Assembly: GCA_013203665.1 (NCBI GenBank)
Contig: JABMPU010000035.1
Location: 113 to 64,112, forward strand
Source: Armatimonadota bacterium
GTDB lineage: Bacteria > Cloacimonadota > Cloacimonadia > Cloacimonadales > TCS61
Direction: 5' to 3'
DNA length: 64,000 nucleotides
The translations under genes were made by a program, and so were the position numbers. Positions within the stretch are counted from its first letter, which is position 1; every line of letters starts with the position of its first letter. The notes beneath the pieces were generated by a model. The model did no database searches, was not told the origin of the DNA, and saw nothing but the letters and a program-made list of their open reading frames with translations. Shown piece by piece: positions 2,791-47,163 of this stretch.

Positions 2791-4758
2791 ATGGGTCTTA
2801 ACATAGTTCAAAAGATAATAAAATCTCATCTTATCGAAGGAGAGATGAATGCCGGAGAATTAGTCGGCATCAAAATTGATCAGACATTAACTCAGGATGC
2901 CACAGGAACAATGGCTTACCTTGAATTCGAAGCAATGGAAATTCCTGAAACAAAATCAGAACTTTCCGTGAGTTATGTTGACCATAATACCAGCCAGATG
3001 GGATTTGAAAATGCTGATGACCACAAATATCTGCAAACAATAGCAGAAAAATTTGGATTACATTATTCCAGAGCAGGAAATGGAATTTGTCATCAGGTTC
3101 ATCTGGAAAGATTTGGGATTCCGGGGAAGACATTACTGGGTTCAGACAGTCATACTCCAACCGGAGGAGGAATGGGAATGATGGCTATTGGCTCCGGTGG
3201 TCTGGATGTTGCCAGAGCTATTGCAGGATTTCTTTTTTACATTACTTTTCCCAAAGTTCTGAAAATAAATTTAACCGGTAAATTACCTGCCTGGGTTTCT
3301 GCGAAAGATATAATTTTGTATGTTTTGGAACTTCTTACAACTAAAGGAAATGTAGGTTGGATGATTGAATATGGTGGTTCCAGTGTAAAAACATTAGGTT
3401 TACCGGAACGAGCAACAATAACAAATATGGGTGCTGAGCTGGGAGTAACTACTTCGATCTTTCCCAGTGATGAGATAACTTTATCATTTCTTAAAGCGCA
3501 AGATAGAGAGGATAGTTGGAAGGAACTGAAGGCAGATGACGATGCAAAATACGACAGAATTATTGATATCGATCTTTCTACCCTTGAACCTAGAGTTGCC
3601 ACACCGCACAGCCCGGGAAACATTAAACTGGTAAGCGAATTATCTGGAATGAAGGTTGACCAAGTTTGCATTGGGAGTTGTACAAATTCATCATTTAAAG
3701 ATTTAATGACAGTGGCAGAGATGCTCAAAGGAAAAAAACTACCTACTGGTATGAGTCTTGTAATTGCTCCCGGCTCAAAACAGGTTTTGGAAATGATAAC
3801 TGAAAATGGAGCTTTATCTGATATGATTGCATTTGGTGCGAGGATAATGGAATCTGCCTGTGGATTTTGCATCGGAAATGGTCAGGCTCCTGCAACAGAT
3901 GCTGTTTCTGTTCGAACTAATAATCGTAATTTCAAAGGACGCTCCGGAACCGAATCTGCAGGCATTTATCTGGTTAGCCCGGAAACAGCAGTAGCTTGTG
4001 CATTAACAGGTGTAATGACCGATCCCAGAGATCTTGGAATGAAACCTCCGGAAATCATATTGCCCGAAAAATTCAAAATTGATGATAGTATGATAATTTT
4101 TCCATCAAAAGAGAAAAAGGAAATTAAGATTTATCGTGGACCAAATATCGGAAACCCTCCCACAAATGAATCTCTTGTTGATAAACTTTTGGGAGAAGTA
4201 ACTTTAAAGGTTGAAGATAAAATAACGACCGACCACATAATGCCTGCTGGAATCAGGTTAAAATATCGCTCAAATATTCCCAAATATTCCGAATTTGTTT
4301 TTGAACCTGTTGACACAACATTTCCAGCAAGATGCCTTTCCAACAAAGAAAATGAAAAAGCAAATATCATTGTGGTTGGTTTAAGTTACGGTCAGGGTTC
4401 ATCCCGGGAACACGCTGCGATTTGTCCTTCATTTTTGGGCGTGAGGGCAGTTATTGCAAAATCCATTGAAAGAATTCACTGGGCAAACCTGGTAAACTTT
4501 GGCATTATTCCCATGATCTTTGCAGATGAAGAAGATTTTGAAAAAATCGAGCAAAATGATGAATTAGAGATGACTGGCTTAATTCAAGCTATCCGAAACA
4601 AAAGCAGTTACATCATAAAAAACAAAACAAAGAATTACGAATTTGAAGTGAAATTGGAACTGAGCTTCAGAGAGCGAGAAATATTAATCGCAGGTGGAGT
4701 TCTAAATATAATCAAAAATAAAGTCGAAGTAAAAAAAAAGAGGAGGATTAATTTATGA
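2791..4758 (+). CDS. acn: Aconitate hydratase (short, roughly 650-aa aconitase-family form)
   Basis: Aconitase motifs are present: IDQTLTQDATG, GSDSHTPTGG, Fe-S ligand cysteines in CIGSCTNSS and CGFCIGNG, and NRNFKGRSG. The swivel domain reads GLSYGQGSSREHAA. Confidence 0.9.
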   Translation: MGLNIVQKIIKSHLIEGEMNAGELVGIKIDQTLTQDATGTMAYLEFEAMEIPETKSELSVSYVDHNTSQMGFENADDHKYLQTIAEKFGLHYSRAGNGICHQVHLERFGIPGKTLLGSDSHTPTGGGMGMMAIGSGGLDVARAIAGFLFYITFPKVLKINLTGKLPAWVSAKDIILYVLELLTTKGNVGWMIEYGGSSVKTLGLPERATITNMGAELGVTTSIFPSDEITLSFLKAQDREDSWKELKADDDAKYDRIIDIDLSTLEPRVATPHSPGNIKLVSELSGMKVDQVCIGSCTNSSFKDLMTVAEMLKGKKLPTGMSLVIAPGSKQVLEMITENGALSDMIAFGARIMESACGFCIGNGQAPATDAVSVRTNNRNFKGRSGTESAGIYLVSPETAVACALTGVMTDPRDLGMKPPEIILPEKFKIDDSMIIFPSKEKKEIKIYRGPNIGNPPTNESLVDKLLGEVTLKVEDKITTDHIMPAGIRLKYRSNIPKYSEFVFEPVDTTFPARCLSNKENEKANIIVVGLSYGQGSSREHAAICPSFLGVRAVIAKSIERIHWANLVNFGIIPMIFADEEDFEKIEQNDELEMTGLIQAIRNKSSYIIKNKTKNYEFEVKLELSFREREILIAGGVLNIIKNKVEVKKKRRINL

Positions 4759-5816
4759 AAAAGATTTTATTGGTTTTATTAGGCGTATTTCTGGTGGGGC
4801 AAGTATTATCTGCAGTAGATTTTTATGGTAATGCCAGAATTGGGTATTGGTATGATATGCAGGATGAGGACATTACAGGTAGTGAAGCTAGAACTGTTAT
4901 GCATTATGATCTGTTTGGCACCAGCAGGTTTGGAGCTAATTTTAAGGGTGAAGCTTACACAGGAAAGGTGGAATTTTCTCTTTCCGGTGCAGGAGCGAAA
5001 CTAAGACAAATCTGGGGTGAATATGATTTTGGTAATTTGAAAATTTTAATTGGTCAGTATTACACAGGTTTCTTTGATCTTCCTAACCAAGCAACTTCCA
5101 TTATCTCCGGAAGTGAAAACCTGATGATAGGTTATGGTTTGATGTATGATTCACGCCATCCGATGATAAAATTATCCTTAGAAAATGGAATGTATATAAT
5201 TTTTATGGAACCAAAATTAATTGATCCGGCTTCAGCAGGTGGTGTAGATGCATTATTTCCAAAGATAAATTTTGGTTGCAGATTGAGCATGGGAAACCTA
5301 ATGATTCATCCAACCTTTGGTATAAATATGTCACAATATAATGAAGACTTCGCTGATGGAGGAATCGATGAATCAATTCTTGCATATGTTACTGCAGTGT
5401 CCACAAAGTATTGCGCAGATAAATTTAATATTCTGGCTCAGATCAGTTATGGTCAGAACGTCGCTGATTATGGCATGCTAACATCAGCAACAGTGAGTAA
5501 TGCAATCTGGATTAACTCAGAAGTTGAAAACGCCACCTCGATGGGCGGTTATTTTGAATTCACCTACAAACTTTGTCCTACTAAAAATATAGCTGCTGGT
5601 TTTGGATATTTTAGTGGAGACCGCGAAGATCTCGATGATCCTGACACAGCCTGGACTGCTTATCTTCAATCTAAGATTAATCTACATAATCATATGTTTA
5701 TTGTTCCAGAGATTGGTATGATTAACGAAGCGGAAGACGGAATGGGCAATACAGAAGGTTCTCACACCTATTTTGGCCTGAATTTTCAAGCAGATTTTGA
5801 TCTAAGTATAAAATAG
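4755..5816 (+). CDS. Putative outer-membrane beta-barrel / porin-like protein
   Basis: It has the signal peptide MKKILLVLLGVFLVGQVLSA. The body shows alternating aromatic/Gly-rich beta-strand composition (GYWYDM, YTGKVEFSL, GGYFEFTYKL, YFGLNFQADF). The ATG overlaps the acn stop (ATGA at 4755-4758), and an aggagg RBS sits at 4741-4746 inside the acn 3' end. Confidence 0.5.
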   Translation: MKKILLVLLGVFLVGQVLSAVDFYGNARIGYWYDMQDEDITGSEARTVMHYDLFGTSRFGANFKGEAYTGKVEFSLSGAGAKLRQIWGEYDFGNLKILIGQYYTGFFDLPNQATSIISGSENLMIGYGLMYDSRHPMIKLSLENGMYIIFMEPKLIDPASAGGVDALFPKINFGCRLSMGNLMIHPTFGINMSQYNEDFADGGIDESILAYVTAVSTKYCADKFNILAQISYGQNVADYGMLTSATVSNAIWINSEVENATSMGGYFEFTYKLCPTKNIAAGFGYFSGDREDLDDPDTAWTAYLQSKINLHNHMFIVPEIGMINEAEDGMGNTEGSHTYFGLNFQADFDLSIK

Positions 5817-8152: not shown

Positions 8153-9481
8153 TCATTCCTTCTTTATACCAATATTAAAGACCTGGTTTAGGACTATAGC
8201 CAGAACAGTTGTAAGTGTAAGCGGGGATGAGAAAATCGGGCTTAACCAAGCTGGAATTCTGGAATAAAGATCAGGGAGAATAGCTGCACTCAATCCAAAA
8301 ACAAATGAAATTCCAATGATAAAGGTTTTTCTTACATTCATTTTGCTGGTAACCAGTATCTGGATGCCAGAGATCACCATAAAGCAGGTAACAAAGATCA
8401 GGATAGATCCCATAATCGGCTCCGGCATGACAGAAAAGACCGCAGCGAGTTTAGGCATAAATCCTAGACAAATAAAGAAACCACCGGCAAAATAGGCAAT
8501 CCGCCTGCTCGTTGCTGAGGTTGCAGCAGATAATCCGACATTACTTGCAGACGTATCAGTAGCCATTCCTCCCAGAAACCCGCTTACTGTCACACTGATA
8601 GCATCTGCAAACAAACCCCTGCCAACATTTTTCATATCTACTTCTTTCCAGTTGTCATCATTGATCTTCTGGCAGGTTGAAAGATTACCAAAAGACTTTA
8701 AACTGGAACAAAGTGAAACCACAATAAAGGGAAGAATAAGAGAAGGAGCAAAGGCAAATTTAAACTGTTCAACATGTTTTCCAGGTAAGGCAAACCAGGG
8801 TGCTTCGATGATAGCACTAAAATCTGATGCTGAAAGAATACCGGAAAAATAGGATAAAATGTAGCCTATTCCCAATCCGATTAAAACGCAGTATAGTTTC
8901 AACTTTCCTTTGCTCCAGATGTTTAATCCTATCATCGAAAATAATGTAATGGTAGCAACCATCAGAACGTTTAAATTAATAGCATCTCCTGCATATTCTA
9001 TCCCGACAAATTTTGAAGCTCCCAAAGGGATCAGGGAAATTGCCACCATTAAAACAACTAATCCTGTAATTTCGATCGGAAAGAAACGTTTTAACCTGTG
9101 AACCACTCTTGAGAACAGACTTTCAAAAAACCCTGAAATCATTGTCATGCCATGCATCAGTGGTAAACCGCCCAGCCAGGCAGCTTGAACCGATACCGAC
9201 AGATATGATGGCCCACATAGATTAGGACACAGATATCCCGAACCGATCGGACCTTTTTTGATAGACTGAATGATCGTACCTATTCCTGCTGCGATCATGG
9301 AAAAACAAACCAGGCTTTGAACAACATCGAAACCTACCCCAATCTCCCGGGCGACAACAACCGGTAAAACCAGCGTACTGGACATGGTGAAAACATGCTG
9401 CAATCCAAGTAATGCCGATACAGCAAAAGAAGGTTTATCATCTACACCATAGATGAGATGTTTAGGTTTTAATTTTATCAT
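8153..9481 (-). CDS. NCS2-family nucleobase (xanthine/uracil-type) permease
   Basis: It is a polytopic membrane protein with the NCS2 N-terminal signature ALLGLQHVFTMSSTLVLPVVVA. I prefer Met23 (MIKLKPKH, 9481) as the start, because the longer ORF would overlap the upstream gene. Confidence 0.8.
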   Translation of the reverse strand: MIKLKPKHLIYGVDDKPSFAVSALLGLQHVFTMSSTLVLPVVVAREIGVGFDVVQSLVCFSMIAAGIGTIIQSIKKGPIGSGYLCPNLCGPSYLSVSVQAAWLGGLPLMHGMTMISGFFESLFSRVVHRLKRFFPIEITGLVVLMVAISLIPLGASKFVGIEYAGDAINLNVLMVATITLFSMIGLNIWSKGKLKLYCVLIGLGIGYILSYFSGILSASDFSAIIEAPWFALPGKHVEQFKFAFAPSLILPFIVVSLCSSLKSFGNLSTCQKINDDNWKEVDMKNVGRGLFADAISVTVSGFLGGMATDTSASNVGLSAATSATSRRIAYFAGGFFICLGFMPKLAAVFSVMPEPIMGSILIFVTCFMVISGIQILVTSKMNVRKTFIIGISFVFGLSAAILPDLYSRIPAWLSPIFSSPLTLTTVLAIVLNQVFNIGIKKE

Positions 9482-9491
9482 AGTCTCTCTT

Positions 9492-10394
9492 TTATTTCCA
9501 GATGGGCTCGACAATGAAAAGACCGGACCCAACGATAACATGATCATTTCCTACTTTTACTTTTCGGACATAAAGCATCTTTTTAGATAGAGTTGATTGT
9601 CCGGGCTGAGGCCACAAATAAACGATAAATGCTTTATCCTCTATCTGGAGTTTATCTATCATTTCTCTGACTACATATTTTCCAACTCCATCTTTGAAAT
9701 CAATCAAATCCCTACCTTTAATTCCCGGAAAGACCGGATCAACAATCGCTTTTCCTTCCATTGAAATAACAAAAATATAAACATCTGAAAAATAAAACAT
9801 TGTACTCTTATCAACGAGTTTACTGTAGGCTGCTTCACCTTCTTTCTTAATTAAATTGGCGGCAGCATCAATTGTATCGAGCATAAATTTCTTTTCAAGA
9901 TGAATTTGATAGGTTCCGCTGCCGATGATAAAAGAATTCCCTTCCTGATCATTAACTTTCATGACATAAGCACTTTTCCAGTATGGAAATATCTCCCCTC
10001 GCTCAGCCCATAAATAATGAATCCAACCATAAGGTTTTGAAGGATTCGAAGCAACATCGATAATATTCCGGATCACCGGTTTACCGTTCATATCCTGCAA
10101 ATCCAATATATTTGTTCCTACAAATTCCTTTTCATAGGGATGAAAAATACAGTTCCCTTTTAAATCATAAAGAAATAAGTACCTCTTACCTTTTATCCAT
10201 TTGCTGTCCTTGTCGCCAAAATCAATGAAGGCTCCGGCTCCTTTCTGTGAAAAATATGCTGCTGCTGTTTCTACAAATTCTATCAAATCAATAGTCTCTT
10301 GAAACTGATATTGTGATTCCAGGATTTGGGATGAACCCTGCAAAGAGAAAAAGAAGGTAAGAAATAATAGACATAAAATTTTAACTTTTATCAT
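9492..10394 (-). CDS. Secreted protein made of two tandem sCache_2-like (single Cache 2) domains, with no transmitter domain
   Basis: The signal peptide is MIKVKILCLLFLTFFFSLQG. Two repeats follow the sCache_2 pattern (YLFLYDLKGNCIFHP...GWIHYLW...IIGSGTY and YIFVISMEGKAIVDP...IVYLWPQP...VIVGSGLF). The stop codon is 10 nt upstream of the permease start. Confidence 0.6.
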   Translation of the reverse strand: MIKVKILCLLFLTFFFSLQGSSQILESQYQFQETIDLIEFVETAAAYFSQKGAGAFIDFGDKDSKWIKGKRYLFLYDLKGNCIFHPYEKEFVGTNILDLQDMNGKPVIRNIIDVASNPSKPYGWIHYLWAERGEIFPYWKSAYVMKVNDQEGNSFIIGSGTYQIHLEKKFMLDTIDAAANLIKKEGEAAYSKLVDKSTMFYFSDVYIFVISMEGKAIVDPVFPGIKGRDLIDFKDGVGKYVVREMIDKLQIEDKAFIVYLWPQPGQSTLSKKMLYVRKVKVGNDHVIVGSGLFIVEPIWK

Positions 10395-10738
10395 ATAACT
10401 TTTCCCAGCAATAATAAAGAACAACAACCTTAATATCTGTTGTTATTTACAAAAACTGTGTTCGAATATAAAAAGAGTATCGATAATGTAAATATATTTT
10501 TTTATCTATATGAAACTTCGCAAAGCTGAGTATTACTCATGAGATGTTTCGTTTGAGATTTCTTAGTTTATCTGAATTTTTTTAATTTGAATTCCTTTTA
10601 TTCTCCCTTTTACTTGTCGCATCATAGATAGGTAGTATTATGAGGGTTGATATCCATTACTTCTTCGGGATCGTCAAAAGAAGTAATGCCCTGATGCATA
10701 TCGGTGAACCAAGGAAATCTCGACACTCCGGCAAAAGC

Positions 10739-11296
10739 TTATTTCCTGAGTTTGACTGCTGTACCGTACACCAGTAATTCAGCAGCACTACCCACAACAC
10801 TTGTAGTCATATAGCGAACATTGATGATTGCATCGGATCCCATTTCTGCTGCCTGAGCCATCATCCTGTTGGTAGCAGTTGAGCGAGCGTTTCCCATCAT
10901 CTCGGTGTATTCAGTTAATTCACCACCCAGGATTAGCCTGATAAGAGCTGATAAATCTTTACCAAGCCAGATTGCAAAAACTGTATGTCCTTGGACCAGA
11001 CCAAGGATCTCACGAGTCTTCCTGCCGGGTACTGTATCAGAATTCAGTAGCAGAACCCTGGTTTCAAGCTCAGCAGGTAAAGACTTATCTGCGGGTCTCT
11101 TTGCTTTTCTTTGTTCCAGGGCTACTGTAATCAGAACCAATAGAATGCCACCCAGAAGACAGAAAACCGCTAGGCGCAGCCATAATGGTACAATAGGATC
11201 ATCAGCAACAAGTATGTGCCATGGCATTCCGACAAAGATTGCAACAAACAATCCAAGCACAAAAGCTAATGAACCAATATGTCGAAGTACTTTCAT
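10739..11296 (-). CDS. Membrane-anchored YbjQ/UPF0145-family protein
   Basis: The C-terminal 105 aa match the YbjQ pattern (ILGLVQGHTVFAIWLGKDL...GGELTEYTEMM..AR..A..RM...A.EMGSDAIINVRY). The N-terminus has two hydrophobic helices. The start at 11296 has an aaggagg RBS. Confidence 0.7.
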   Translation of the reverse strand: MKVLRHIGSLAFVLGLFVAIFVGMPWHILVADDPIVPLWLRLAVFCLLGGILLVLITVALEQRKAKRPADKSLPAELETRVLLLNSDTVPGRKTREILGLVQGHTVFAIWLGKDLSALIRLILGGELTEYTEMMGNARSTATNRMMAQAAEMGSDAIINVRYMTTSVVGSAAELLVYGTAVKLRK

Positions 11297-13218: not shown

Positions 13219-16200
13219 TCATAATTCAAATTTATCTATCTCGCCAACAATCCTCACACTCTCCAAACTAACTGTAACAATCTTCTTTATCAATCGGACA
13301 ATATATTGCTGATCATCGTGATTATTGGGATTATGAGTAATACCGCTAACTTTATCTGTTTTAATTCTATATTGGTCAATTATCCAATGTAGTGCAGAAC
13401 GATTTCCAAGCTTGTACTGATAAACTTCCTCAGGAATACAATTCAGCGTTAGAAAATCATTATATTTAAGTTCGGTTTTGTCTTTGGACAACCGCATTTT
13501 GATTACGTTCCAATCAAGCTTTGTATCCGGTGTTTCGATCATTTCCAAAGTATATTCATCTGCATTTTCATAATTTAAGTGAATTTCAGAAAGTTGCTTA
13601 CCAAATTCTGATAATGCTTGGAAATTTTCGTAAAAAGGAATTCTCGGTAGTTCTCTTTTTAAGTTAGCTGAATATTTTTCTCGATAATCTGTATTATGTA
13701 GAGCTGCATAAATATAATAAAAAATGTCCCACTTAGTTATATCTGCAGCTTGATAATGATTTCTGAACTTTTCCAGAGACCAGTCTGTAATGTTCTCGGT
13801 TCTTTTACTGCCGTCTTTTTTGTAAACGTAAAAGGGAAAGCACTGAGATTTTTCAAGGAAATCTAATGAAGTTATTTTATTTACCATTAAGCATTGGAAT
13901 TGTTTTTTATGAGCAATACCACTTACAAATATTATCTTATTTTCTCTTTCCTTTTCCTCATTGGGTAAATATTCTCTAAAGTGACCAGGTCTATCGATAA
14001 GGATATTATCATAATAAAGATTTTGTTTTGTGAAAGGTCTAAACAATGAAGATTCTATTCGATCTTCATCGTATTCTATTTTTTCACCTCTTTTACAGTG
14101 ATTCTTTAAAGTGCTACTCCATTTGATTTTCTCATAATTTACAAATTCATCGATGTTAAAATCATTTCCTTTTTTTGTGTTTTCATATCTTGTTACTTCA
14201 TTATTATAATCATCACAGAGTTGGATTATTCGATCTTCAAGATCATCTTTATTAAAATCATAAACCACATAATCTCTATTGGTAGAAACTCCGAGTGAAT
14301 AATATTTGAAAATAGATTTTACATTCAGGACATCGCTGTTTTTGGTCTCTTTGGTTCCCATTGGTAGAAAAGTTTTAAAATCTTCCTGAATATCTTCGTT
14401 CAACCAGTTATTGTTTTCATCAGGTATTAGCTCTTTCCAGTGCATGTTGTGATATGTACGTACTTTCTCCAACATTTCAAATTTTTCATTTCTGGTTGCT
14501 CTGAAATCAACAGTATTATAAAATATTTTTCTGTCCTTCAGATTTGTATTTTTTATGAGAAATGTGATTGAAACTCCAACCATTGCACTAAGACCGAACA
14601 CAGTATGTTTCTCTCCTAGTGGAATCCCATCTTTCATCGAATCTTTACGGATATCACCTTGTAAATCAATAATATATATTCTATTAAAACCCTCAAATAA
14701 ATGTTTTCTCATGCCATCAAAAGTAAAATCTTTGATAAAACTGTTGTTACTAATATAAGCTACAACACCGTTTTCTTCAATTCTTTCAGAGGCAAATTTA
14801 ATCGCTTTTATATAAGGGTCGAATAGTTTACTTTTTAGAGTTGCTTTAGAATCCTTAGCATAAGTATCGTGAATTTTTTTGTCCAGAGCAGGATATTTTC
14901 TATTCTTATTATTATCATTTTCATTAACTTGATTGGCATTATACGGTGGATTGCCGATGATTACGGTTATAGGAGATCCCTTTTGTTTATTTATTCTATC
15001 GGTATTTTCTTTATTCATAAAATCCAGAATATGCTGTGCTTCTTCTGCTAGCTCAAAAGTATCTACCAGGCATATTCCTTTGAACGGTTTATATTTTCCT
15101 GTCAGCTCAAAATAAAGATGCTCAATATTCATAGAAGAGATATAGTAAGGAAGCAGCATTACTTCATTGCAGTGCAGTTCTTCATCATATTTTTTCTGCA
15201 AACTTGTTTTCATTACTTCTTTCATCACTCTCAAAATGAAATTACCAGTTCCAACAAATGGATCGAGAATATGAACATTTTCATCAGATAATGATTTATT
15301 AAATTCTATTTGTAGAATATCTTGAACAGAATTAACCATAAAATCAACAATAGGTTGTGGAGTATAGACGATACCATGAGTATTAGCAACTTTAACAGAA
15401 AATCCCTGAAAGAAATTCTCATAAACCGTGTTCATGAAATCTTGTTTTTGTGAATAATCCTTAATTAATTCTGCTGTATGTTCGATGGCATAATAAAAAC
15501 GATCGAGTTTTTTCAAGAAGTCAGTTCTGCTGAAATACTTTGAGGTTAGTGCTAAAATAACTTTTTCAATTTCTGCTGCAATTGTATTATTGTTCCTGAA
15601 ATCAGGATTATGGAAAATTTTCCTGAAAATTCGTTCCGTTAATAGATGCTGAATAAGCATTTCATTAATAGATTCTCTTCTTAGATTTTTATTGATTGAG
15701 TCTTTACATAATTCTTCGAAATCAATGAATACTTTTCTGAAAGTTTTATTTGTTTTGTATTCTCTTTCAATAATTTGCATTAAGCTTTGTGCAAGTTCGG
15801 GGATTTTTATTTTGAATTCATCAACAGCTTGTTTCCATTCAATATATTCCGGTGGTTGATACTCGAAGAAAATCTTTAATGCAAAAATCAAATTTTCAGG
15901 TGCTGATATGTTTATGTCTTGCACAAATAATCTATTTTGATAAATGATAATTCTGTCGGGAGTCTGAAAAATAATATTGTCAGTCGGATAACCATTTTCA
16001 ATTTTTTTCTTAATTTCAAGTTCAAAGTCATCTTTGGTATCTTTCGCTTCCCAGAATCCATGAACCAGCTTATATCCATCAACAATTGCACCATCAGGCC
16101 GTATCGTAGAATTTCGATAACCAATTGTAGAATATTGTTCTATAAGTGTCCATTTGAATTGTCTGGCATAAAATCTGAGAATATTGGCAAAGAAAGGAGA

Positions 16201-39279: not shown

Positions 39280-40299
39280 ATGTTTATAGATTACGCAAAA
39301 ATCAGAGTTGAGTCCGGCAAAGGCGGAAACGGTTGCGTCAGCTTCCGACGCGAAAAATTTGTATCAAAAGGTGGACCCGACGGCGGTGATGGTGGAAAAG
39401 GGGGAAATGTAATTGTGGTAGGTGATGAGAATGTAAACACCTTATTAGCATATCGTTACAATCACTTTTACAAAGCAAAGAACGGCAGGAACGGAATGGG
39501 TAACAATAAAACCGGAGCCAGAGGAGAAGACATCATCCTTAGATTTCCTTTAGGAACCGAGATCTATGATATCACACATGGAGAGAAAAATAAAATTGCC
39601 GAAATTACCCATAATAACGAGAAAATCGTGATTGTCAAAGGCGGGAATGGCGGCAGAGGAAACACACGATTCAAAAGTGCAACAAACAAAGCTCCACGTT
39701 TTGCCAAGCCCGGCGGAAACAGCGAATATTTTGAATTGGAATTGAACTTGAAATTGATGGCTGATGTCGGTTTAGTCGGTTTCCCAAATGCCGGAAAATC
39801 CACTTTGTTGAGCGTAGTTTCCGAAGCTCATCCCAAAATTGCAGACTATAGATTTACAACTTTAGAGCCTACATTAGGAGTTGTTCATATTGGAAATTTT
39901 GAAACTTTCGTGATGGCAGATATTCCCGGTTTGATCGAAGGAGCTCACGATGGTAAAGGTTTAGGAGTCCAGTTTTTAAAACATATTCAGCGAACCAAGA
40001 TTCTGCTTTTTATGATCGATGTAAATTCTATAGATCCTTTTGATGATTACCAGGTTTTGAAAAAGGAACTTCATCTTTATGATCCTTATCTGGATAAAAA
40101 GCCGCATGTTATCGTTCTCAGCAAAATCGACACGGTTCCGGAAAATGAAAAGAAAGATTTAGTGCAAATTATGAAAGGTGAATTTGAAGAAAAGCTTCAT
40201 GAACAGATTTTTCCGATTTCTTCAGTTTCCGGTGAAAATATAAGAGAGATGAAGAAGAAACTTATTAATATTCTAAAAAAAGATGATGAAGAAAATTAA
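39280..40299 (+). CDS. obg: GTPase Obg/CgtA
   Basis: MFIDYAKIRVESGKGGNGCVSFRREKF..GGPDGGDGGKGG is the Obg fold. The G1 motif is GFPNAGKST, with DIPGLIEGA and SKID downstream. Confidence 0.95.
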   Translation: MFIDYAKIRVESGKGGNGCVSFRREKFVSKGGPDGGDGGKGGNVIVVGDENVNTLLAYRYNHFYKAKNGRNGMGNNKTGARGEDIILRFPLGTEIYDITHGEKNKIAEITHNNEKIVIVKGGNGGRGNTRFKSATNKAPRFAKPGGNSEYFELELNLKLMADVGLVGFPNAGKSTLLSVVSEAHPKIADYRFTTLEPTLGVVHIGNFETFVMADIPGLIEGAHDGKGLGVQFLKHIQRTKILLFMIDVNSIDPFDDYQVLKKELHLYDPYLDKKPHVIVLSKIDTVPENEKKDLVQIMKGEFEEKLHEQIFPISSVSGENIREMKKKLINILKKDDEEN

Positions 40300-41371
40300 A
40301 GCCTGGATTAAGCTGCTCGAAACTCCTGAAATTGGCAATGCAAAAGCAATAAGATTAACTGAAATTCTGGGTGAGCCTAAAAATTTCATCGGCAAACCGG
40401 ATGACAGACTAACTGACATCGATTTTATTTCCGAATCCGCTAAAGAGAACCTGGCAAAAGGTTCCAAGCTGGAAAACTGGGATAAAATTGCAGAGCTAAT
40501 GGAAACTTTCGAAATCAAGTTCATTTCAATTCTGGATAAAGATTATCCGACATTATTAAAATCAATCTACACTCCACCACCCTTTTTATTCTACAGGGGA
40601 AAGCTGGATAAAGATATATTCCGAAGAACCATCGCCATAGTGGGAACACGAAAGCCGACAAATTACGGCAAAATAATGACAAAAAGAATTGGTAGTAAAC
40701 TGGTTCAAGCAGGATTTACAATTGTAAGCGGTCTTGCCTATGGAATCGATACGATAGCTCATTTATCGACCTTTGAAAATAATGGCAGGACGATTGCAGT
40801 TCTGGGAACCGGTTGTGACCAGATTTATCCCCCGATAAACCGTGAGATTGCAGAAAAAATCATAGAAACCGGGGCTTTGATTTCAGAATACCTTCCCGGT
40901 CAAAAGGTTGAAAAATGGAATTTTCCCACTAGGAACAGGATAATCAGCGGCATAAGTTTGGGAAGTTTGATCATCGAAGGTTCAAAGAAAAGTGGAGCAC
41001 TTCTAACTGCAAAATTCGCTTTAGACCAGAATCGTGATGTTTTTGCTCTTCCCGGAGATATTAACAGGGAACAATCTGCAGGTCCGAATTATTTGATTAA
41101 ATTGGGGGCAAAAATCGTAACCTGCCCGGATGACATCCTGGAAGAATACGACCTTGTTCTCGATAGACCGGAGAAGCCATTTCCAAAACTTTCTGAGAAA
41201 GAAGACAACATCTACCAGGTTCTTTTGGAGAACAAACCTGAAATCCAGTTTGATGATTTAATGTTGAAAACCGGCTATTCCGTTGGTGAACTTTCCACAG
41301 TTCTGCTTTCCCTGGAATTGAAAAGTATAATTAAGAAAGTTCCGGGGAATAAGATTGTGCCGTTGTATTGA
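40283..41371 (+). CDS. dprA: DNA-processing protein DprA
   Basis: AIVGTRKPTNYG, SGLAYGIDTIAH and the SGALLTA pattern are present. It overlaps the obg 3' end by 17 nt. Confidence 0.9.
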   Translation: MMKKIKAWIKLLETPEIGNAKAIRLTEILGEPKNFIGKPDDRLTDIDFISESAKENLAKGSKLENWDKIAELMETFEIKFISILDKDYPTLLKSIYTPPPFLFYRGKLDKDIFRRTIAIVGTRKPTNYGKIMTKRIGSKLVQAGFTIVSGLAYGIDTIAHLSTFENNGRTIAVLGTGCDQIYPPINREIAEKIIETGALISEYLPGQKVEKWNFPTRNRIISGISLGSLIIEGSKKSGALLTAKFALDQNRDVFALPGDINREQSAGPNYLIKLGAKIVTCPDDILEEYDLVLDRPEKPFPKLSEKEDNIYQVLLENKPEIQFDDLMLKTGYSVGELSTVLLSLELKSIIKKVPGNKIVPLY

Positions 41372-41413
41372 TTTTTTTATTGACTAAAGAATTAGTATAA
41401 AATTAAAGAAAAT

Positions 41414-44400
41414 ATGACAAACATCAAAACTAACGAACGAGAATTAGCAAGCAAGATTGCTCAATGGTTCAACGAGCAAATAAATAGAGGAAAATATCCT
41501 TTTACATCTGCAAGTTGTGAACCTGGAATTAAAGTAGGAAAAACAACTTATTTCGGTGATATTATAATTTGGAAAAACAGGGAAATAGATAAAGCATTTT
41601 CCTATATTGAACTCAAACCACCATTTGGAGAAACTGAGAATTTAGAACGATTCAGAGAAAAAGCTATTCAGTTAAAAGTTAAAATCGCTTACACTTGGGA
41701 TTTTCAATCTTTGAATGCTTATGAAATAAAAGATAATAAAATTGAATTGTCTGCAACAGAAACATATTCTGTTCTAACGAATATTGAAGATTGGAAAAGA
41801 GGTGATAAACAAGCTTATATTAAAGCTTTCATTTCCAGGATTTGTGATGAGTTGTTAAATTTTTCCGAAAAAGGAAAGTTCCGAAAATTTAAACCTGAAA
41901 AGCATTATTTTATCCGCTTCTTACGAAATATCGTTGATGATCTGATTCCTTTATTCGAGCAATTTATCAGAGTATTCCATAAACAAAAAGAATTCAAAAG
42001 CATAATTAATAGGTTTGTTGCTGAACAGGGAATTGCCTATCCAAATGATGAAGATTTTTACAGATTAATTGCCAGCCAACGAGTTTATGGCTTGATTACA
42101 AAAATCATTTTTTATCTAACCATAAAAAGACACTTTAAAGAATTGCCCGAGTTATATTCTGAAGATGAGAAAGATCTCGAAGCAAATTTGAATTCTGCTT
42201 TTTCTAATGCTCGGGAAATTGACTGGCAGGCAGTTTTTGAAACTGATCCGATAGAAGAATTGGGAATTCCAAAGGAAGCTTATTCTTCTTTAAATGAATT
42301 GTTCTCACATCTAAAAATCTATAATTTCGGGGCTTTACCGGAAGATGTTATCGGTGAATTATTTGAAGAAATAATTGATCCCAAAAGACGACACGAATTA
42401 GGACAATATTTCACTCGCGAAGATCTCGTTGATTTAATCATTGCTACAATTGTGAATGATAAAGATAAAATCTATGCAGACCCGACTTGCGGTTCGGGAA
42501 CATTTCTCATCAGGTTGTATGATAGATTGAAATTTTTAAGCGGATACAGAATGAAGCATGAACAAGTTTTAGACAGGATCTGGGGAATCGATATTGGAAA
42601 ATTTCCCGCTGAACTTTCAACGATAAATTTATTCAGGCAATCTCCGAGTAATTTTGAAAATTTTCCCCGCATTATTCATAAAGATATTTTTGAAATATCT
42701 GTAGGACAGGAAATCGAATTTCCTCCGAATAATGTGAATTACAATCAGAGATATAACAAAATCAAAATAAAAATTCCTGAATTTTATGGTTTGGTTGGAA
42801 ACTTTCCGTATATCAAGCAGGATCTGATAGAAAAGAATGTGAAAGGATATAAGCAATTTCTTACTAAATTGTTGGCTTATGAATACCTCGGAGATTATCC
42901 GAAATTATTTAAATTAAACCATATTAAAGAAGCTGAATTCAAGAACTTCTTAGAAAAACCAGAATCAGAAAGAAAGAAACGAATTGATCACTGGTTAAAA
43001 AATAAATATGTTGAATTAAAATTATCAGGACAAGCTGATATTTACACTTACATTTTTATTCACACTGCAACTCTTCTTAGTAAAGCCGGTTCATTTGCCA
43101 TAATTACTTCAAATTCTTGGTTAGATGTCGCTTATGGTTCTGTTCTCAAAAAATTCTTTTTAGACCATTTCAAGATCAAGATGATAATTGCTTCCTGGGC
43201 AGAACCTTGGTTTGATGATGCTGCTGTGAATACCGTGTTCACAATTCTGGAAAAATGCGATGATGAAAAAGAACGAGATAACAACCTTGTTCATTTTGTA
43301 AAACTAAAGAAAAAATTAGAAGAACTAATACCGGAAAGAAATCTTAAAATCGAATCTAATAATCGCTGGAGAAGAATTGACGGAATTGTAAACACTATTG
43401 AATCTGCTCAATTTAAAGCTGATAAGATCGATGAGAAAATATCTTCTTTTGAAAATGAACAAATGCGTGTTCGAATGGTGAAACAGGAAAAACTCTTAGA
43501 AGAGCAAACATCGCAAAACGATCTTTCCAAATGGGGTAAATATCTAAGAGCACCGGATGTTTATTTTGATATTCTGGAAAAATGCAAAGATAAACTTGTT
43601 AGTCTCAAAGATATTACAAAAAGCTGCCAACGTGGTAAGACATCTGGAATTACAGATTTCTTTTATTTGCAAAATGTAAATGATGAATTCACAAATATTT
43701 CAAAAAAATGGCAAGGTAAAATTGAAAAATGTTACTTGAAAAAAGTAATAAAATCACCAAAAGAAAGTAAAAGTATAGAAATAAAACAGGAAAATTTAAA
43801 ATATTATTTATTTGTATGTAATAAAAGCAAAAATGAACTAAAAAAACTTAATCATTTTGGAGCTCTTACTTATATTGATTGGGGTGAAACCCAAAGAACC
43901 AAAAATAATGTACTTTGGCCGGAAGTTCCCTCTGTGCAGGGAAGACAATATTGGTGGTCATTTGAAATACGTGAACCATCAAAAGTATTATGGACCGAAA
44001 TGTGCAACGATAATTTTAGAACGTTACATAATAGTAAAAAAGTAATAGAAAGTGATAAATTTTATAGAATTGATACTGAAGATAAAAAGCTTTCTGAGAA
44101 TATTGGATACTATTTAAATTCAACTATTTGCTTTCTATTCCGAGAATTGAATTCGTTCATTTCATTAGGAGACGGTGTCATAAAAACACCTGTTTACGAA
44201 TTACAGAATTTAGAAATTCCTAGTAGTATTAAAGAATTCAAATATAAAAATGATAAACTATTATCTCGTAATATAGCAAAAATATTTAAAGAAGTTAAAC
44301 TCAAAGATCGTCAAGAACTGGACAAAGCAGTTTTACAAGCACTCGGTTTAAATCCGGAAGAATATCTTCAACGTATTTATGATGGCCTAACTCAAATGGT

Positions 44401-44914
44401 AAGAGAGCGTCTAGATTTACCCAAAATGCGCAAGAAAAGAAGAAGACAACAAATTCAAATCTCTTACAATGAAGTTAAAACTTCTGTGGTAAATGAAATC
44501 ATCGGCAGCCAACTGAAAAAATTCCCTGAAGATTTTTATACGGATGCAAAGCTGGGTCATGATTATGAAAGTATAGAAACAGCAATTTATAATACCAGTG
44601 GGAAAGTACTTCACATCGATGAGTTTATGCATATCTGCACTTTGATAGATGAAGATGGTGAAGAAATATTTTCTACAAAAAATTTACAAGAAGCTCAGTT
44701 TGCTGTGATTCTGGCAAAACCTGATATTTTTAGATTAAAGATTCCGAAAGATGAAAAGATAACAAAAAGCATTTTAGACAATTATAAAAATTATGTTAAT
44801 CAATTAAAAGAACAATTAGAAGCAAATGCTCAACAAAAATTGCATAGCTGGAACGAAGCTGAACAAATGGCAAAAGAGATTTTGGAAGAGTATGGGTTGA
44901 GGATTTTATGGTAG
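41414..44914 (+). CDS. 1166-aa single-chain nuclease + N6-adenine DNA methyltransferase + large C-terminal (TRD-like) region; Type IIG-like RM enzyme with a non-canonical motif IV
   Basis: The N-terminal PD-(D/E)xK-like motif is YFGDIIIWKNREIDKAFSYIELKP. The MTase motifs are GQYFTREDLVDLI, motif I YADPTCGSGTFLI and motif IV LVGNFPYIKQD (NFPY instead of NPPY). No helicase motifs were seen. Confidence 0.75.
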   Translation: MTNIKTNERELASKIAQWFNEQINRGKYPFTSASCEPGIKVGKTTYFGDIIIWKNREIDKAFSYIELKPPFGETENLERFREKAIQLKVKIAYTWDFQSLNAYEIKDNKIELSATETYSVLTNIEDWKRGDKQAYIKAFISRICDELLNFSEKGKFRKFKPEKHYFIRFLRNIVDDLIPLFEQFIRVFHKQKEFKSIINRFVAEQGIAYPNDEDFYRLIASQRVYGLITKIIFYLTIKRHFKELPELYSEDEKDLEANLNSAFSNAREIDWQAVFETDPIEELGIPKEAYSSLNELFSHLKIYNFGALPEDVIGELFEEIIDPKRRHELGQYFTREDLVDLIIATIVNDKDKIYADPTCGSGTFLIRLYDRLKFLSGYRMKHEQVLDRIWGIDIGKFPAELSTINLFRQSPSNFENFPRIIHKDIFEISVGQEIEFPPNNVNYNQRYNKIKIKIPEFYGLVGNFPYIKQDLIEKNVKGYKQFLTKLLAYEYLGDYPKLFKLNHIKEAEFKNFLEKPESERKKRIDHWLKNKYVELKLSGQADIYTYIFIHTATLLSKAGSFAIITSNSWLDVAYGSVLKKFFLDHFKIKMIIASWAEPWFDDAAVNTVFTILEKCDDEKERDNNLVHFVKLKKKLEELIPERNLKIESNNRWRRIDGIVNTIESAQFKADKIDEKISSFENEQMRVRMVKQEKLLEEQTSQNDLSKWGKYLRAPDVYFDILEKCKDKLVSLKDITKSCQRGKTSGITDFFYLQNVNDEFTNISKKWQGKIEKCYLKKVIKSPKESKSIEIKQENLKYYLFVCNKSKNELKKLNHFGALTYIDWGETQRTKNNVLWPEVPSVQGRQYWWSFEIREPSKVLWTEMCNDNFRTLHNSKKVIESDKFYRIDTEDKKLSENIGYYLNSTICFLFRELNSFISLGDGVIKTPVYELQNLEIPSSIKEFKYKNDKLLSRNIAKIFKEVKLKDRQELDKAVLQALGLNPEEYLQRIYDGLTQMVRERLDLPKMRKKRRRQQIQISYNEVKTSVVNEIIGSQLKKFPEDFYTDAKLGHDYESIETAIYNTSGKVLHIDEFMHICTLIDEDGEEIFSTKNLQEAQFAVILAKPDIFRLKIPKDEKITKSILDNYKNYVNQLKEQLEANAQQKLHSWNEAEQMAKEILEEYGLRILW

Positions 44915-45450
44915 ATTTAAAGACTATCCTAGCTCATATCTTAAAACACTTTAAAGAATACGAAATTGGCTATGGTAAAACCAGATTACTTAAAATAGCT
45001 TATTTGGTAGAGCTTTTCTATTATCGTAATGAAATGAAGCGATTGACCAATGAAGAATGGATTTTTTATAAATTTGGTCCGTATTTAATGAATTATGATA
45101 ATATCCTTAATGATAAAAAGATATTTGTTGTTGAAGACATTAAAGATGATTTTACAAAAGTTACATTAAATGAAAGTGCTACAATTCCTGTATTACCATC
45201 TGAAATTAGTCTTATTATTAATCATTCAGTAAAAAAATATGGAAACATGGATTTCTATAAATTATTGGATTATGTTTATTATGATACAGAACCAATGATA
45301 GATGTTAATAAAAGATTAGATAAATTGGATTTCAGCTCAGTTAAACCCCAAAAATATTACGAAATCAAAGAATTTAAAAATTTAGATAAAATACTTGAGA
45401 AATTAAATTTTAAATATCAAGAAAAATTTAAAAATGCCAGAAAAATATAA
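44908..45450 (+). CDS. Panacea-domain (DUF4065, SocA/GepA-like) protein, candidate antitoxin
   Basis: GKTRLLKIAYLVELFYYRNEMKRLTNEEWIFYKFGPY follows the DUF4065 pattern (t.lKLqKLlYyaq...g.pL..e.f.AW.yGPv). The later stretch VKKYGNMDFYKLLDYVYYDTEPM matches the second conserved block. The ATG overlaps the methylase stop (ATGGTAG). Confidence 0.6.
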   Translation: MVDLKTILAHILKHFKEYEIGYGKTRLLKIAYLVELFYYRNEMKRLTNEEWIFYKFGPYLMNYDNILNDKKIFVVEDIKDDFTKVTLNESATIPVLPSEISLIINHSVKKYGNMDFYKLLDYVYYDTEPMIDVNKRLDKLDFSSVKPQKYYEIKEFKNLDKILEKLNFKYQEKFKNARKI

Positions 45451-46222
45451 AGGTATTCCGAAATTATATGATAACATTTTATCGCTTTCTGAAGGTGATT
45501 GGACATTCTATGAATGGTTAGATTTAAAAAGTGATTTGCAGGTGGGTCAAATTTGTTGTGCTCCTGCATGGTATGAAAAGAAAAAAAGATGGTTTTTCAC
45601 AACTGCATTTTATGATAGAATAAATGAAGCCAAATCAACTTGGTCTGCAAAAGAATATTCTAGTGAAAGATCAAAAAACAAAAATACAGACATGAATGTT
45701 AATAGATATTTCGGCTTAGAATCTGATGAAAATTTGATATCTACACCTGGCAAATATAGGCCAGTTTTACTCTTGAAATATTATGAAACTGACTGGTGGA
45801 GTAAAACATATCCAAATAATAGCTGGTTATGTTTTCCAATATTTAGTTATAAAAAAAGTAGACACAATCAAGAATATGTTTTGGAAGATATGAAATTAAA
45901 CAATCCAGACAGATTTTATCTTCCTCCTCAATATAATCCTGAACTACCTGGTTTGAATGAAGAAAGTTCGGTTTTGCTTCATTCAATACAATTTATAGAG
46001 AAAACTTACCTTTATCCTTTAGAATGTTGTTTAGATAATAAAGAGTACAAGCATTTTAAAATTTCAGAAAAAGCATTGAAATTAGTTTTTTTCCATTTCA
46101 TAAAAAATACTAACATTTTAAATATCTTTTTGGATAGAAAAGAGAAAGAAAATCATGAAGAAAATAATGAATATGAGTTGTTTAAAATGTACATTGAGGA
46201 TTTACTTAAAGAATATGATTAA
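45434..46222 (+). CDS. 262-aa protein with a divergent, insertion-expanded MazF/PemK-like pattern, candidate toxin
   Basis: The order of blocks mirrors MazF/PemK. VGQICCAPAWY corresponds to GDIwwvdf. GKYRPVLLLK corresponds to g.RPavVls. SWLCFPIFSYKK corresponds to v.vvPlTs..k. PGLNEESSVLLHSIQFIEKTYL corresponds to gl.k.S.vl.dqirtidk.rl. It overlaps the upstream gene by 17 nt. The call rests on pattern only. Confidence 0.4.
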   Translation: MPEKYKGIPKLYDNILSLSEGDWTFYEWLDLKSDLQVGQICCAPAWYEKKKRWFFTTAFYDRINEAKSTWSAKEYSSERSKNKNTDMNVNRYFGLESDENLISTPGKYRPVLLLKYYETDWWSKTYPNNSWLCFPIFSYKKSRHNQEYVLEDMKLNNPDRFYLPPQYNPELPGLNEESSVLLHSIQFIEKTYLYPLECCLDNKEYKHFKISEKALKLVFFHFIKNTNILNIFLDRKEKENHEENNEYELFKMYIEDLLKEYD

Positions 46223-46365
46223 TTTTTTTTTAAATACAAATTGCTTCAAAAAATATTTAGAATAAAAAAAGATAGTTCATCAAATGAAAAATTATTTGAC
46301 ATTAATAACTTTGAAAATAACTTGCTTTTTGATTTTATAACTCCAAGAGAATTTCTCTTGGCCGC

Positions 46366-46396
46366 AAGGTTGCCGAAAGGCAACCTTAGCTTTTTC
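46366..46396 (+). terminator. Rho-independent terminator after the three-gene operon
   Basis: aaggttgcc-gaaa-ggcaacctt is followed by agctttttc. A second hairpin, ccaagag-aattt-ctcttgg, lies just upstream at 46343-46361. Confidence 0.65.
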
Positions 46397-46467
46397 TTAT
46401 GAGAATTAATATCTTAAATCATTAAGAAAAATTAGTGCTAATTAGTGTAAATTCGTGGATAAAAAAA

Positions 46468-47163
46468 ATGAAAAAACGTAAAACCAAAATTACCAGAAAT
46501 TATTTACTTCATCCTGCCGGCTCAGTTCTCATCCAAACCGGCAATACAAAAGTGATTTGTACAGCAACTGTTCAGGAAGGAGTTCCTCCATTTCTTCTAA
46601 ATAAAAATCAAGGTTGGATCACTGCAGAATACAGCATGCTGCCCGGAGCTCCGGATAAACGATTTTCCAGAGAATCTATCCGCGGAAAATTAGCTGGTAG
46701 AACTGTGGAAATTCAACGTTTGATCGGTCGTTCTCTGCGAGCTGTTGTGGATATGAATCTATTTCCGGGTTATACGATTATGATAGATTGTGACGTAATC
46801 CAAGCTGATGGTGGAACCAGAACTGCTGCCATAACCGGTGCTTGTGTGGCTCTTAATGATGCTTTTCAAAAAATGCAAAGTAATGGTCTGATAGATAAGA
46901 ATCCTTTGAAAGTATTTGTAGCAGCCATCAGTGTGGGAATTGTGAATGGAAAACCTGTTTTAGATTTGGATTATGAGCAGGATTCCAAAGCTGATGTAGA
47001 TATGAACATTGTAATGACTGAAAGCGGGAAATTTGTAGAAATTCAGGGAACTGCCGAATCCAATCCATTTTCTGATAAAGAATTGACTGAACTGATCAAG
47101 CTGGCAAAAGAAGGGATAAGGCAGTTGATAAATGAGCAGAAAAATACAGATTTTCATTCTTAG
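46468..47163 (+). CDS. rph: Ribonuclease PH
   Basis: [31 protein letters not shown] and [19 protein letters not shown] are present. I prefer the start at 46468 (MKKRKTK); the upstream 11 codons are built from an intergenic word repeat. Confidence 0.92.

Follow-up and report, generated by a model that had tools for sequence, protein, structure and literature searches.

A predicted Type IIG restriction-modification gene followed by a PanA-PanT-like toxin-antitoxin pair between dprA and rph: probably two autonomous modules in a Cloacimonadota-like genome

Antitoxins of the PanA type have been found combined with toxins that have no hit in CDD but resemble EndoA, PemK and MazF in HHpred comparisons, and such toxins were validated and inhibit translation (Kurata et al. 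2022, PNAS; PMC8832971). Examples are the PanT of P. moraviensis and B. ruminantium and clusters T5 and T6, and further clusters of MazF-like PanT are present in the same dataset (PMC8832971). MazF/PemK is also a common fold among the NetFlax toxins (PMC10440598). Another relevant system is the anticodon nuclease PrrC, which is kept latent by the Type Ic enzyme EcoprrI and is always linked to restriction-modification (RM) genes (PMC1484252, PMC3458546). Here we analyze a stretch of 64,000 nucleotides (nt) from contig JABMPU010000035.1 of assembly GCA_013203665.1 (positions 113 to 64,112), hereafter the window, in which three overlapping open reading frames (ORFs) lie on the forward strand between dprA and rph. 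Gene 1 (41414-44914) has 1166 amino acids (aa), gene 2 (44908-45450) has 180 aa and gene 3 (45434-46222) has 262 aa. They are predicted to encode a Type IIG RM enzyme, a Panacea antitoxin and a putative MazF-like toxin, respectively.

We estimate a probability of about 0.7 that these genes make up two autonomous defence-type modules, adjacent and probably co-transcribed, and not one integrated system, because the pair formed by genes 2 and 3 occurs without gene 1 and gene 1 orthologues occur without the pair. In tblastn searches, all 25 fetched loci had a gene 2 homologue immediately before that of gene 3. A Panacea gene takes the same position in more distant subgroups (L033 and L035-36), which gives a total of 28 loci in about 19 lineages. 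The two members of the pair diverge in parallel across the 25 loci (33-87% versus 32-82% identity), and their overlap is kept, with 11-23 nt and usually 17 nt. The PanA architecture, as defined by Kurata et al., has a partner at most 100 nt away that is conserved in at least two species, and genes 2 and 3 are arranged in this way. Gene 1 homologues are limited to the close Cloacimonadota copies of the pair (L005-7/L012 and L008/L013). These data indicate that genes 2 and 3 are an autonomous two-gene pair and the unit of conservation. A role of genes 2 and 3 as specificity or control subunits accessory to gene 1 was also considered, and rejected because each module is found without the other.

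The preliminary description of this locus had proposed a single, hard-wired RM/toxin-antitoxin (TA) hybrid not described before. This proposal is not supported here, since the pair stands without gene 1 in many loci, gene 1 orthologues have no pair or carry other cargo, and in one relative (L005) a gene of 244 aa separates the RM gene from the pair. Moreover, pairs of PanA with cryptic MazF-like toxins are already published (PMC8832971). It had asked whether gene 3 homologues always follow a DUF4065 gene and a methylase. The first is the case in the 28 loci and the second is not, as RM genes are lacking near the pair in 10 of the 16 informative lineages. A genome scan for further loci of the pair returned only two already known metagenome-assembled genomes (MAGs), viral scans with alignments of gene 3 subgroups added no loci, and tblastn against curated plasmids and phages gave no match to the pair. 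Other TA genes are found near the pair in distant loci, namely a Phd/YefM-PIN system in L035 (240-871) and a BrnT toxin gene in L002 (1680-2295), which is consistent with clustering of TA or defence genes.

The region behind gene 1 is a variable cargo slot. Synteny on the dprA side is conserved in five relatives (L005, L008, L026, L027 and L029). The closest gene 1 homologue (P0240, 87% identity), closer than any relative bearing the TA pair, belongs to a locus with the order obg-dprA-DUF3800-gene 1-rph and without the pair; in L026, which shows this arrangement, rph comes 42 nt after the stop codon of gene 1. Relatives with gene 1 at 76-77% identity carry other cargo. L027 has a 252-aa protein of the UDG superfamily (9615-10373; Pfam E 4e-5, just under the cut-off) and a 122-aa gene (10454-10822, minus strand), L029 has genes of 52 aa and 121 aa, the latter on the minus strand (9906-10271), and L031 has proteins of 152 aa and 104 aa (4238-5316), the smaller with a weak match to DUF2281. 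The minus-strand genes of L027 and L029 are 87.5% identical. The 244-aa protein of L005 (6728-7462), placed between the RM gene and PanA, has no family match. None of the slot cargo genes of these four relatives was found in PADLOC, and they may have uncharacterised functions in defence or anti-defence. In all relatives, the C-termini of gene 1 are conserved up to the residues EILEEYGL and differ from there on, which places the junction of the slot at the last codons of gene 1. The 7-nt overlap between genes 1 and 2 is therefore a by-product of the position of the cassette. Among the three genomes that bear the TA pair, the island genes are 75-87% identical and the housekeeping flanks 68-75%; being as conserved as the flanks or more, the island genes do not point to a very recent import of this arrangement, which is patchy within the clade.

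The relatives show some further features. A DUF3800 gene lies between dprA and the IIG gene in L008 (3184-3831) and L026 (5342-5818) and is absent from the window. The two copies are 72% identical, that of L026 is truncated, and they mark a second variable position in the islet. About 5 kb downstream of the cassette, L005 harbors an AbiEii gene beside a Lactamase_B/Anti-Pycsar_Apyc1-like gene (13901-15543), which by their family matches are further defence or anti-defence content near the cassette. The proteins identical to those of the window (P0001 and P0239; locus tag HQ534_02210) carry the NCBI label 'Armatimonadetes bacterium'. All syntenic relatives are Cloacimonadota/Cloacimonetes or FCB-group MAGs, and the Armatimonadetes label of the source MAG looks wrong.

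The variability of the slot bears on the role of the pair. One explanation is addiction, in which the pair would mainly guard the RM gene or the islet against deletion by post-segregational or post-deletion killing, with no direct role against phages. Such a function is classical TA biology, and it agrees with the repeated gain and loss of cargo in relatives, with the degraded rph of L005, which indicates a region prone to deletion, and with the presence of the pair also on mobile elements with ParAB, Mob and integrase genes. However, relatives that lack the pair still keep the RM gene, which therefore does not depend on a stabiliser, RM systems can themselves be addictive, and the pair is patchy in the clade and so does not prevent its own loss. 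We consider a purely stabilising role quite improbable, although sequence data alone do not separate it from the reading as two autonomous modules.

Gene 1 has the features of a complete Type IIG enzyme, as the preliminary description had suggested from its motifs. It matches the PADLOC model REase_MTase_IIG (1.4e-57, residues 5-474) and the Pfam families N6_Mtase (2.8e-12) and Eco57I (7.7e-8), and PF22837 (M_Eco57I_C) is precomputed for P0239, the protein identical to gene 1. The nuclease is an N-terminal PD-(D/E)xK domain with residues D49, E66 and K68. Across 31 homologues with 50-87% identity, D49 and K68 never vary, and E66 is kept in at least 90%. A gamma-class N6-adenine methyltransferase (MTase) follows, with motif I ADPTCGSGTF (354-364) and motif IV GNFPY (462-466), and the C-terminal region is of the Eco57I type. 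Residues D356, G360, S361 and G362 and the stretch G462-N463-F464-P465 are invariant in the same homologues; motif IV reads NFPY/F, a variant of NPPY. The family has 690 homologues at E<=1e-10, found in Cloacimonadota, Ignavibacteria and Bacteroidota. There is no close solved structure for gene 1, and the best matches among PDB sequences span the MTase motifs only. The conserved motifs identify gene 1 as a presumably intact single-chain Type IIG RM enzyme. PADLOC also gave secondary matches to mad2 and mad5 of the MADS system for gene 1 and for the MTase and specificity genes of L010 (1e-18, 1e-53 and 3e-28). They look like common methyltransferase and specificity domains and not like MADS systems, and for gene 1 a MADS assignment was rejected, with a score of 38 bits to NCBIfam MAD2 against a cut-off of 720.

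Gene 2 matches the Pfam family SocA_Panacea (PF13274; Panacea/DUF4065) over residues 27-124 with an E-value of 1.5e-9 and 39.2 bits, above the cut-off of 25.7, in agreement with its earlier assignment, and it also matches PHROG 1281. The Panacea domain stands alone, without an N-terminal helix-turn-helix, and is followed by a lysine-rich C-terminal tail of about 55 aa. Homologues of gene 2 at related loci are likewise annotated as SocA_Panacea. The family match thus makes gene 2 a predicted PanA-type antitoxin. In addition, gene 2 has a weak match (E 0.006) to positions 433-547 of the 554 positions of PDLC03184, a PADLOC model for Type I specificity subunits. Some of the proteins behind this HsdS model may carry a fused Panacea domain, which would be a further hint of an association of Panacea with RM.

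Gene 3 has no match in Pfam, NCBIfam, PADLOC or PHROGs. A word-indexed search among 5.8 billion proteins gave 10 relatives, and an exhaustive profile search extended the family to 110 clusters (50% identity). Every member that was checked is a 'hypothetical' protein from metagenomes and has no RefSeq accession. An AlphaFold model was built with 90 family sequences and reached a predicted local distance difference test score (pLDDT) of 92.9 and a predicted template modelling (TM) score of 0.88; an earlier model from 10 sequences, with pLDDT 63, was not used. In a Foldseek search of the PDB, the three top matches of the model were all MazF chains (4mzp_A, 6kyt_G and 6a6x_A), from S. aureus and from M. 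tuberculosis (mt1 and mt9), with probabilities of 0.99-1.00 and MazF-normalised TM scores of 0.55-0.59, although with E-values of only 0.01-0.04. Below these three chains the list is noise, with CcdB at rank 30 (TM 0.44, probability 0.23). The best match in BFVD, a collection of predicted viral structures, is a 266-aa 'PemK-like protein'.

Comparisons at the level of sequence profiles were fainter. PF02452 (PemK_toxin) is not matched by gene 3 itself, but no other Pfam family is reached by several members of the gene 3 family (3 of 90 for PF02452, best E 0.024). The consensus sequences of the family had no match in Pfam, and hmmsearch with the family profile against PDB sequences returned no MazF and one spurious match. 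With hhalign, alignment to single MazF sequences was weak (1.4% and 16.5%), and alignment to a MazF/Kid profile made from six PDB-verified sequences reached a probability of 61.9% with an E-value of 7.6e-5 over 91 columns, placing residues ~106-230 of gene 3 on MazF 26-117. All 90 family sequences have K107, R109 and P135, and position 138 is Ser or Thr in 75 (83%). R109 is aligned to Arg29 of E. coli MazF, a residue kept in all six MazF/Kid sequences, and Ser/Thr138 sits one residue past the position of gene 3 that is aligned to MazF T52. By the established literature on MazF, both residues may be catalytic. The MazF-like core spans about residues 100-230; a beta-rich part precedes it as an extension or insertion on the N-terminal side, and helices follow at the C-terminus. 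A MazF/PemK-like core in gene 3, with the SH3-like barrel of MazF and CcdB, is moderately well supported by the model and these alignments, in agreement with the earlier view of the protein as MazF/PemK-like and over twice the usual size. Gene 3 is a putative PanT toxin and most likely an endoribonuclease that would arrest translation.

The same fold leaves room for another activity. Gene 3 could be a CcdB-like gyrase poison, or a non-toxic protein of the MazF fold, and gene 2 a partner or adaptor such as SocA is for ClpXP. MazF and CcdB have a common fold, CcdB appears in the Foldseek list, and the MazF-like core makes up less than half of gene 3. Furthermore, the Panacea protein SocA is a proteolytic adaptor and not a direct inhibitor, and the Pfam family is named 'Antitoxin SocA-like'. 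Two PanA-paired candidates of the MazF type were also unclean in the tests of Kurata et al., that of Flavobacterium xanthum being scored 'not toxic' and that of Chryseobacterium bovis 'toxic | toxic'. On the other hand, the MazF chains rank well above CcdB in the structural search, R109 is fully conserved and aligned to the invariant Arg of MazF, and a Ser or Thr follows the invariant Pro, which is also the case in MazF and Kid. Those cryptic MazF-like PanTs that were validated are inhibitors of translation (PMC8832971). A function of gene 3 other than that of an RNase toxin thus seems very unlikely.

The layout of the locus agrees with the preliminary description. Gene 1 ends and gene 2 begins within the common sequence ATGGTAG (44908-44914), a 7-nt overlap, genes 2 and 3 overlap by 17 nt (45434-45450), and the AT-rich spacer between the end of the dprA ORF (41371) and the start of gene 1 (41414) has 42 nt (41372-41413), with no promoter assignable. 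The neighbouring genes obg and dprA also overlap by 17 nt (40283-40299). Such tight packing is general in this genome, and the overlaps alone are therefore weak evidence of functional coupling. The unit of genes 1 to 3 is closed by a predicted intrinsic terminator, a double hairpin with a T-run (46343-46396, forward strand). Its stem-loops are adjacent (~46343-46361 and ~46364-46390), and the terminator scan picks up the second one (46366-46387, tail AGCTTTTTCT). The region folds with -29.3 kcal/mol (z = -5.55), and none of 200 shuffled sequences folds as well. A scan for promoters of the sigma-70 type gave 19 sites against 26.7 expected, which is not above chance, and the -7 motif of the Bacteroidota type was not enriched; neither type of motif was found ahead of gene 2 or internal to the unit. 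Since no promoter motif could be recognised ahead of gene 2 and a single terminator closes the unit, genes 1, 2 and 3 are probably co-transcribed in this genome from the promoter of gene 1.

The island is also more AT-rich than its flanks, as had been judged by eye. Its GC content is 0.298 against 0.357 for the whole window, in the lowest 1% of windows of the same size, with 0.238 for gene 2 and 0.278 for gene 3 compared with 0.399 for dprA and 0.387 for rph. The cassette of genes 2 and 3 extends over approximately 1.5 kb (about 44900-46440, forward strand), between the last codons of gene 1 and rph. Its borders have no flanking repeats but only short, imperfect AT-rich matches, so that no mechanism of mobility was identified for it. 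The whole window lacks tRNA and tmRNA genes, and it has no match to an Rfam family at the gathering threshold. Both housekeeping flanks are on the forward strand: dprA at 40283-41371 (Pfam DNA_processg_A, 1.2e-78) and rph, encoding RNase PH, at 46468-47163 (Pfam RNase_PH and RNase_PH_C). The rph ORF was called mechanically from a GTG at 46435, but four relatives (L026, L027, L029 and L008) match an in-frame ATG at 46468, which is probably the true start. The intergenic stretch after gene 3 would then have about 245 nt and not 212. In L005, only about 250 nt of rph are left, immediately behind the gene 3 homologue (8790-9075). This remnant keeps 42 N-terminal codons, a stop and C-terminal fragments in another frame, as in an internally deleted pseudogene.

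The pair was found beside RM or methyltransferase genes in 6 of the 16 informative independent lineages, in which the clade of the window is counted once; this is a small sample, drawn partly from viral contigs. The RM genes belong to types I, II, IIG and III. In the clade of the window, it is the Type IIG gene that lies upstream of the pair. An HSDR_N-N6_Mtase fusion with a specificity subunit ends 5 nt before PanA in L010, a Type II MTase and a NotI-like endonuclease lie ~50 nt upstream of the pair in L009, and a Type II MTase lies 126 nt upstream in L017. The remaining neighbours are more distant, with Type III Mod and Res genes 1 kb downstream in L020 and a Type I HsdR gene 3 kb upstream in L003. 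In 4 of the 6 RM-adjacent lineages the pair is directly downstream on the same strand (p = 0.038 against an expected 0.25). RM genes are thus far more frequent than any genome-wide expectation (p < 1e-4 for an assumed background of at most 5%), but the enrichment is marginal (p 0.02-0.08) against an assumed defence-island-like background of 15-20%. In the lineages without a nearby RM gene, the pair has among its neighbours phage terminase genes, an integrase/Mob element, another TA pair, a two-component system, radical SAM genes or other unrelated genes. The adjacency may reflect clustering in defence islands or a real role of the pair as a companion of RM. No report of an association of Panacea with RM was found in the literature searched.

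A companion role would mean that the pair is functionally coupled to the upstream RM system as a second barrier, which takes effect once restriction is inhibited or overwhelmed; PanA might, for example, sense the state of the RM enzyme or an anti-restriction protein. The placement beside differing RM types, most often directly downstream on the same strand, and the strong enrichment at the lower background would fit such a coupling, as would the overlap of the pair with the RM gene by 7 nt in the window and 4 nt in L008. The pair also has no detectable promoter of its own, and PrrC is a precedent (PMC1484252, PMC3458546). However, most of the informative lineages lack a nearby RM gene and gene 1 orthologues persist at the same locus without the pair. 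The RM partners are moreover unrelated to one another, which makes a specific protein-protein interaction unlikely, and the enrichment is only marginal at the higher of the two backgrounds, both of which are assumed, for a small and partly viral sample. A coupling of this kind is rather unlikely. The idea of RM and TA coupling from the preliminary description, lost in its hard-wired form, survives only as a hypothesis in a weaker, generalised one, in which this TA family is often placed beside several types of RM. One could then speculate that the PanA-PanT family is a dedicated and portable abortive-infection back-up that inserts preferentially directly downstream of RM operons of any type and comes into action when restriction is inhibited or fails, Panacea being the sensor; it would be a generic, antitoxin-gated analogue of PrrC/EcoprrI. 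We regard this general proposal as doubtful and hold it unlikely.

Under the reading as two autonomous modules, the first module would be a resident Type IIG enzyme, conserved just downstream of dprA in a Cloacimonadota-like clade, and gene 1 would protect its own recognition sites by methylation and cut incoming DNA in which they are unmethylated. The second would be a type II TA cassette of the PanA-PanT class, the ~1.5-kb unit of genes 2 and 3. The product of gene 3 is expected to be an enlarged endoribonuclease of the MazF/PemK fold that arrests translation, and the Panacea antitoxin encoded by gene 2 would bind and neutralise it. Translation of gene 3 would be coupled to that of gene 2 through their conserved overlap of 11-23 nt. 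The cassette occupies the variable cargo slot between the RM stop codon and rph, where its insertion would have made the 7-nt overlap with gene 1. The pair may serve in phage defence or in addiction.

Under this reading, the results add a rare family from uncultured lineages to the known PanA-PanT class, and present a further case of a MazF fold missed by sequence profiles, here enlarged to 262 aa. They help to annotate about 110 metagenomic clusters now labelled hypothetical. In addition, they show that, in Cloacimonadota-like genomes, the conserved Type IIG gene beside dprA is followed by a slot with variable cargo. A lead of greater value is that this TA family is found repeatedly just downstream of RM systems, four types of which are represented. 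If the adjacency exceeds the background of defence islands, it would suggest a general strategy of backing up RM, and the same excess, if real, would give a concrete candidate for what Panacea senses, a question left open by Ernits et al. (2023).

No catalogued multi-gene defence system in PADLOC covers all three genes: gene 1 matches RM models only, gene 2 has one weak match and gene 3 has none. Compared with the Type IIG enzymes of the Eco57I/MmeI kind, which are single-chain endonuclease-methyltransferases, gene 1 is alike in having the nuclease, the MTase motifs and the Eco57I-type C-terminus on one chain, and there is nothing unusual in gene 1 itself. With PrrC/EcoprrI the locus has in common a gene for an RNA-targeting toxin, presumed here, within or beside an RM operon, and the conceptual model of restriction with an RNase back-up. 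However, prrC is silenced by the RM enzyme while gene 3 has its own antitoxin, the RM linkage is facultative here and involves differing RM types, and no ABC-ATPase or anticodon-nuclease domain is present in gene 2 or gene 3, the fold of gene 3 being MazF-like. An obligatory RM linkage of the PrrC type was rejected on account of the 10 of 16 lineages that have no nearby RM gene and of the gene 1 orthologues that exist without the pair.

Compared with the canonical toxins MazF, PemK, Kid and EndoA (PF02452), gene 3 is alike in its predicted core fold, closest to the S. aureus and M. tuberculosis MazF, and keeps the order of blocks G-x-R-P-V followed by a hydrophobic strand, L-C-x-P-x-x-S/T, and E-S-x-x-x-x-x-x-I-Q. 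It differs in its size of 262 aa against ~110 aa, in a longer loop between the conserved Glu and Arg, and in having PanA and not MazE or PemI as its partner. The likeness extends furthest with the PanA-PanT pairs of Kurata et al. Both have a stand-alone Panacea antitoxin without an N-terminal domain, encoded first and overlapping the toxin gene. In both, the toxin has no match in CDD or Pfam and its likeness to MazF emerges only by comparison of profiles with profiles or of structures, and both occur in phage, mobile-element and chromosomal contexts. Within this class, the gene 3 family is an apparently separate, rare lineage known from metagenomes only.

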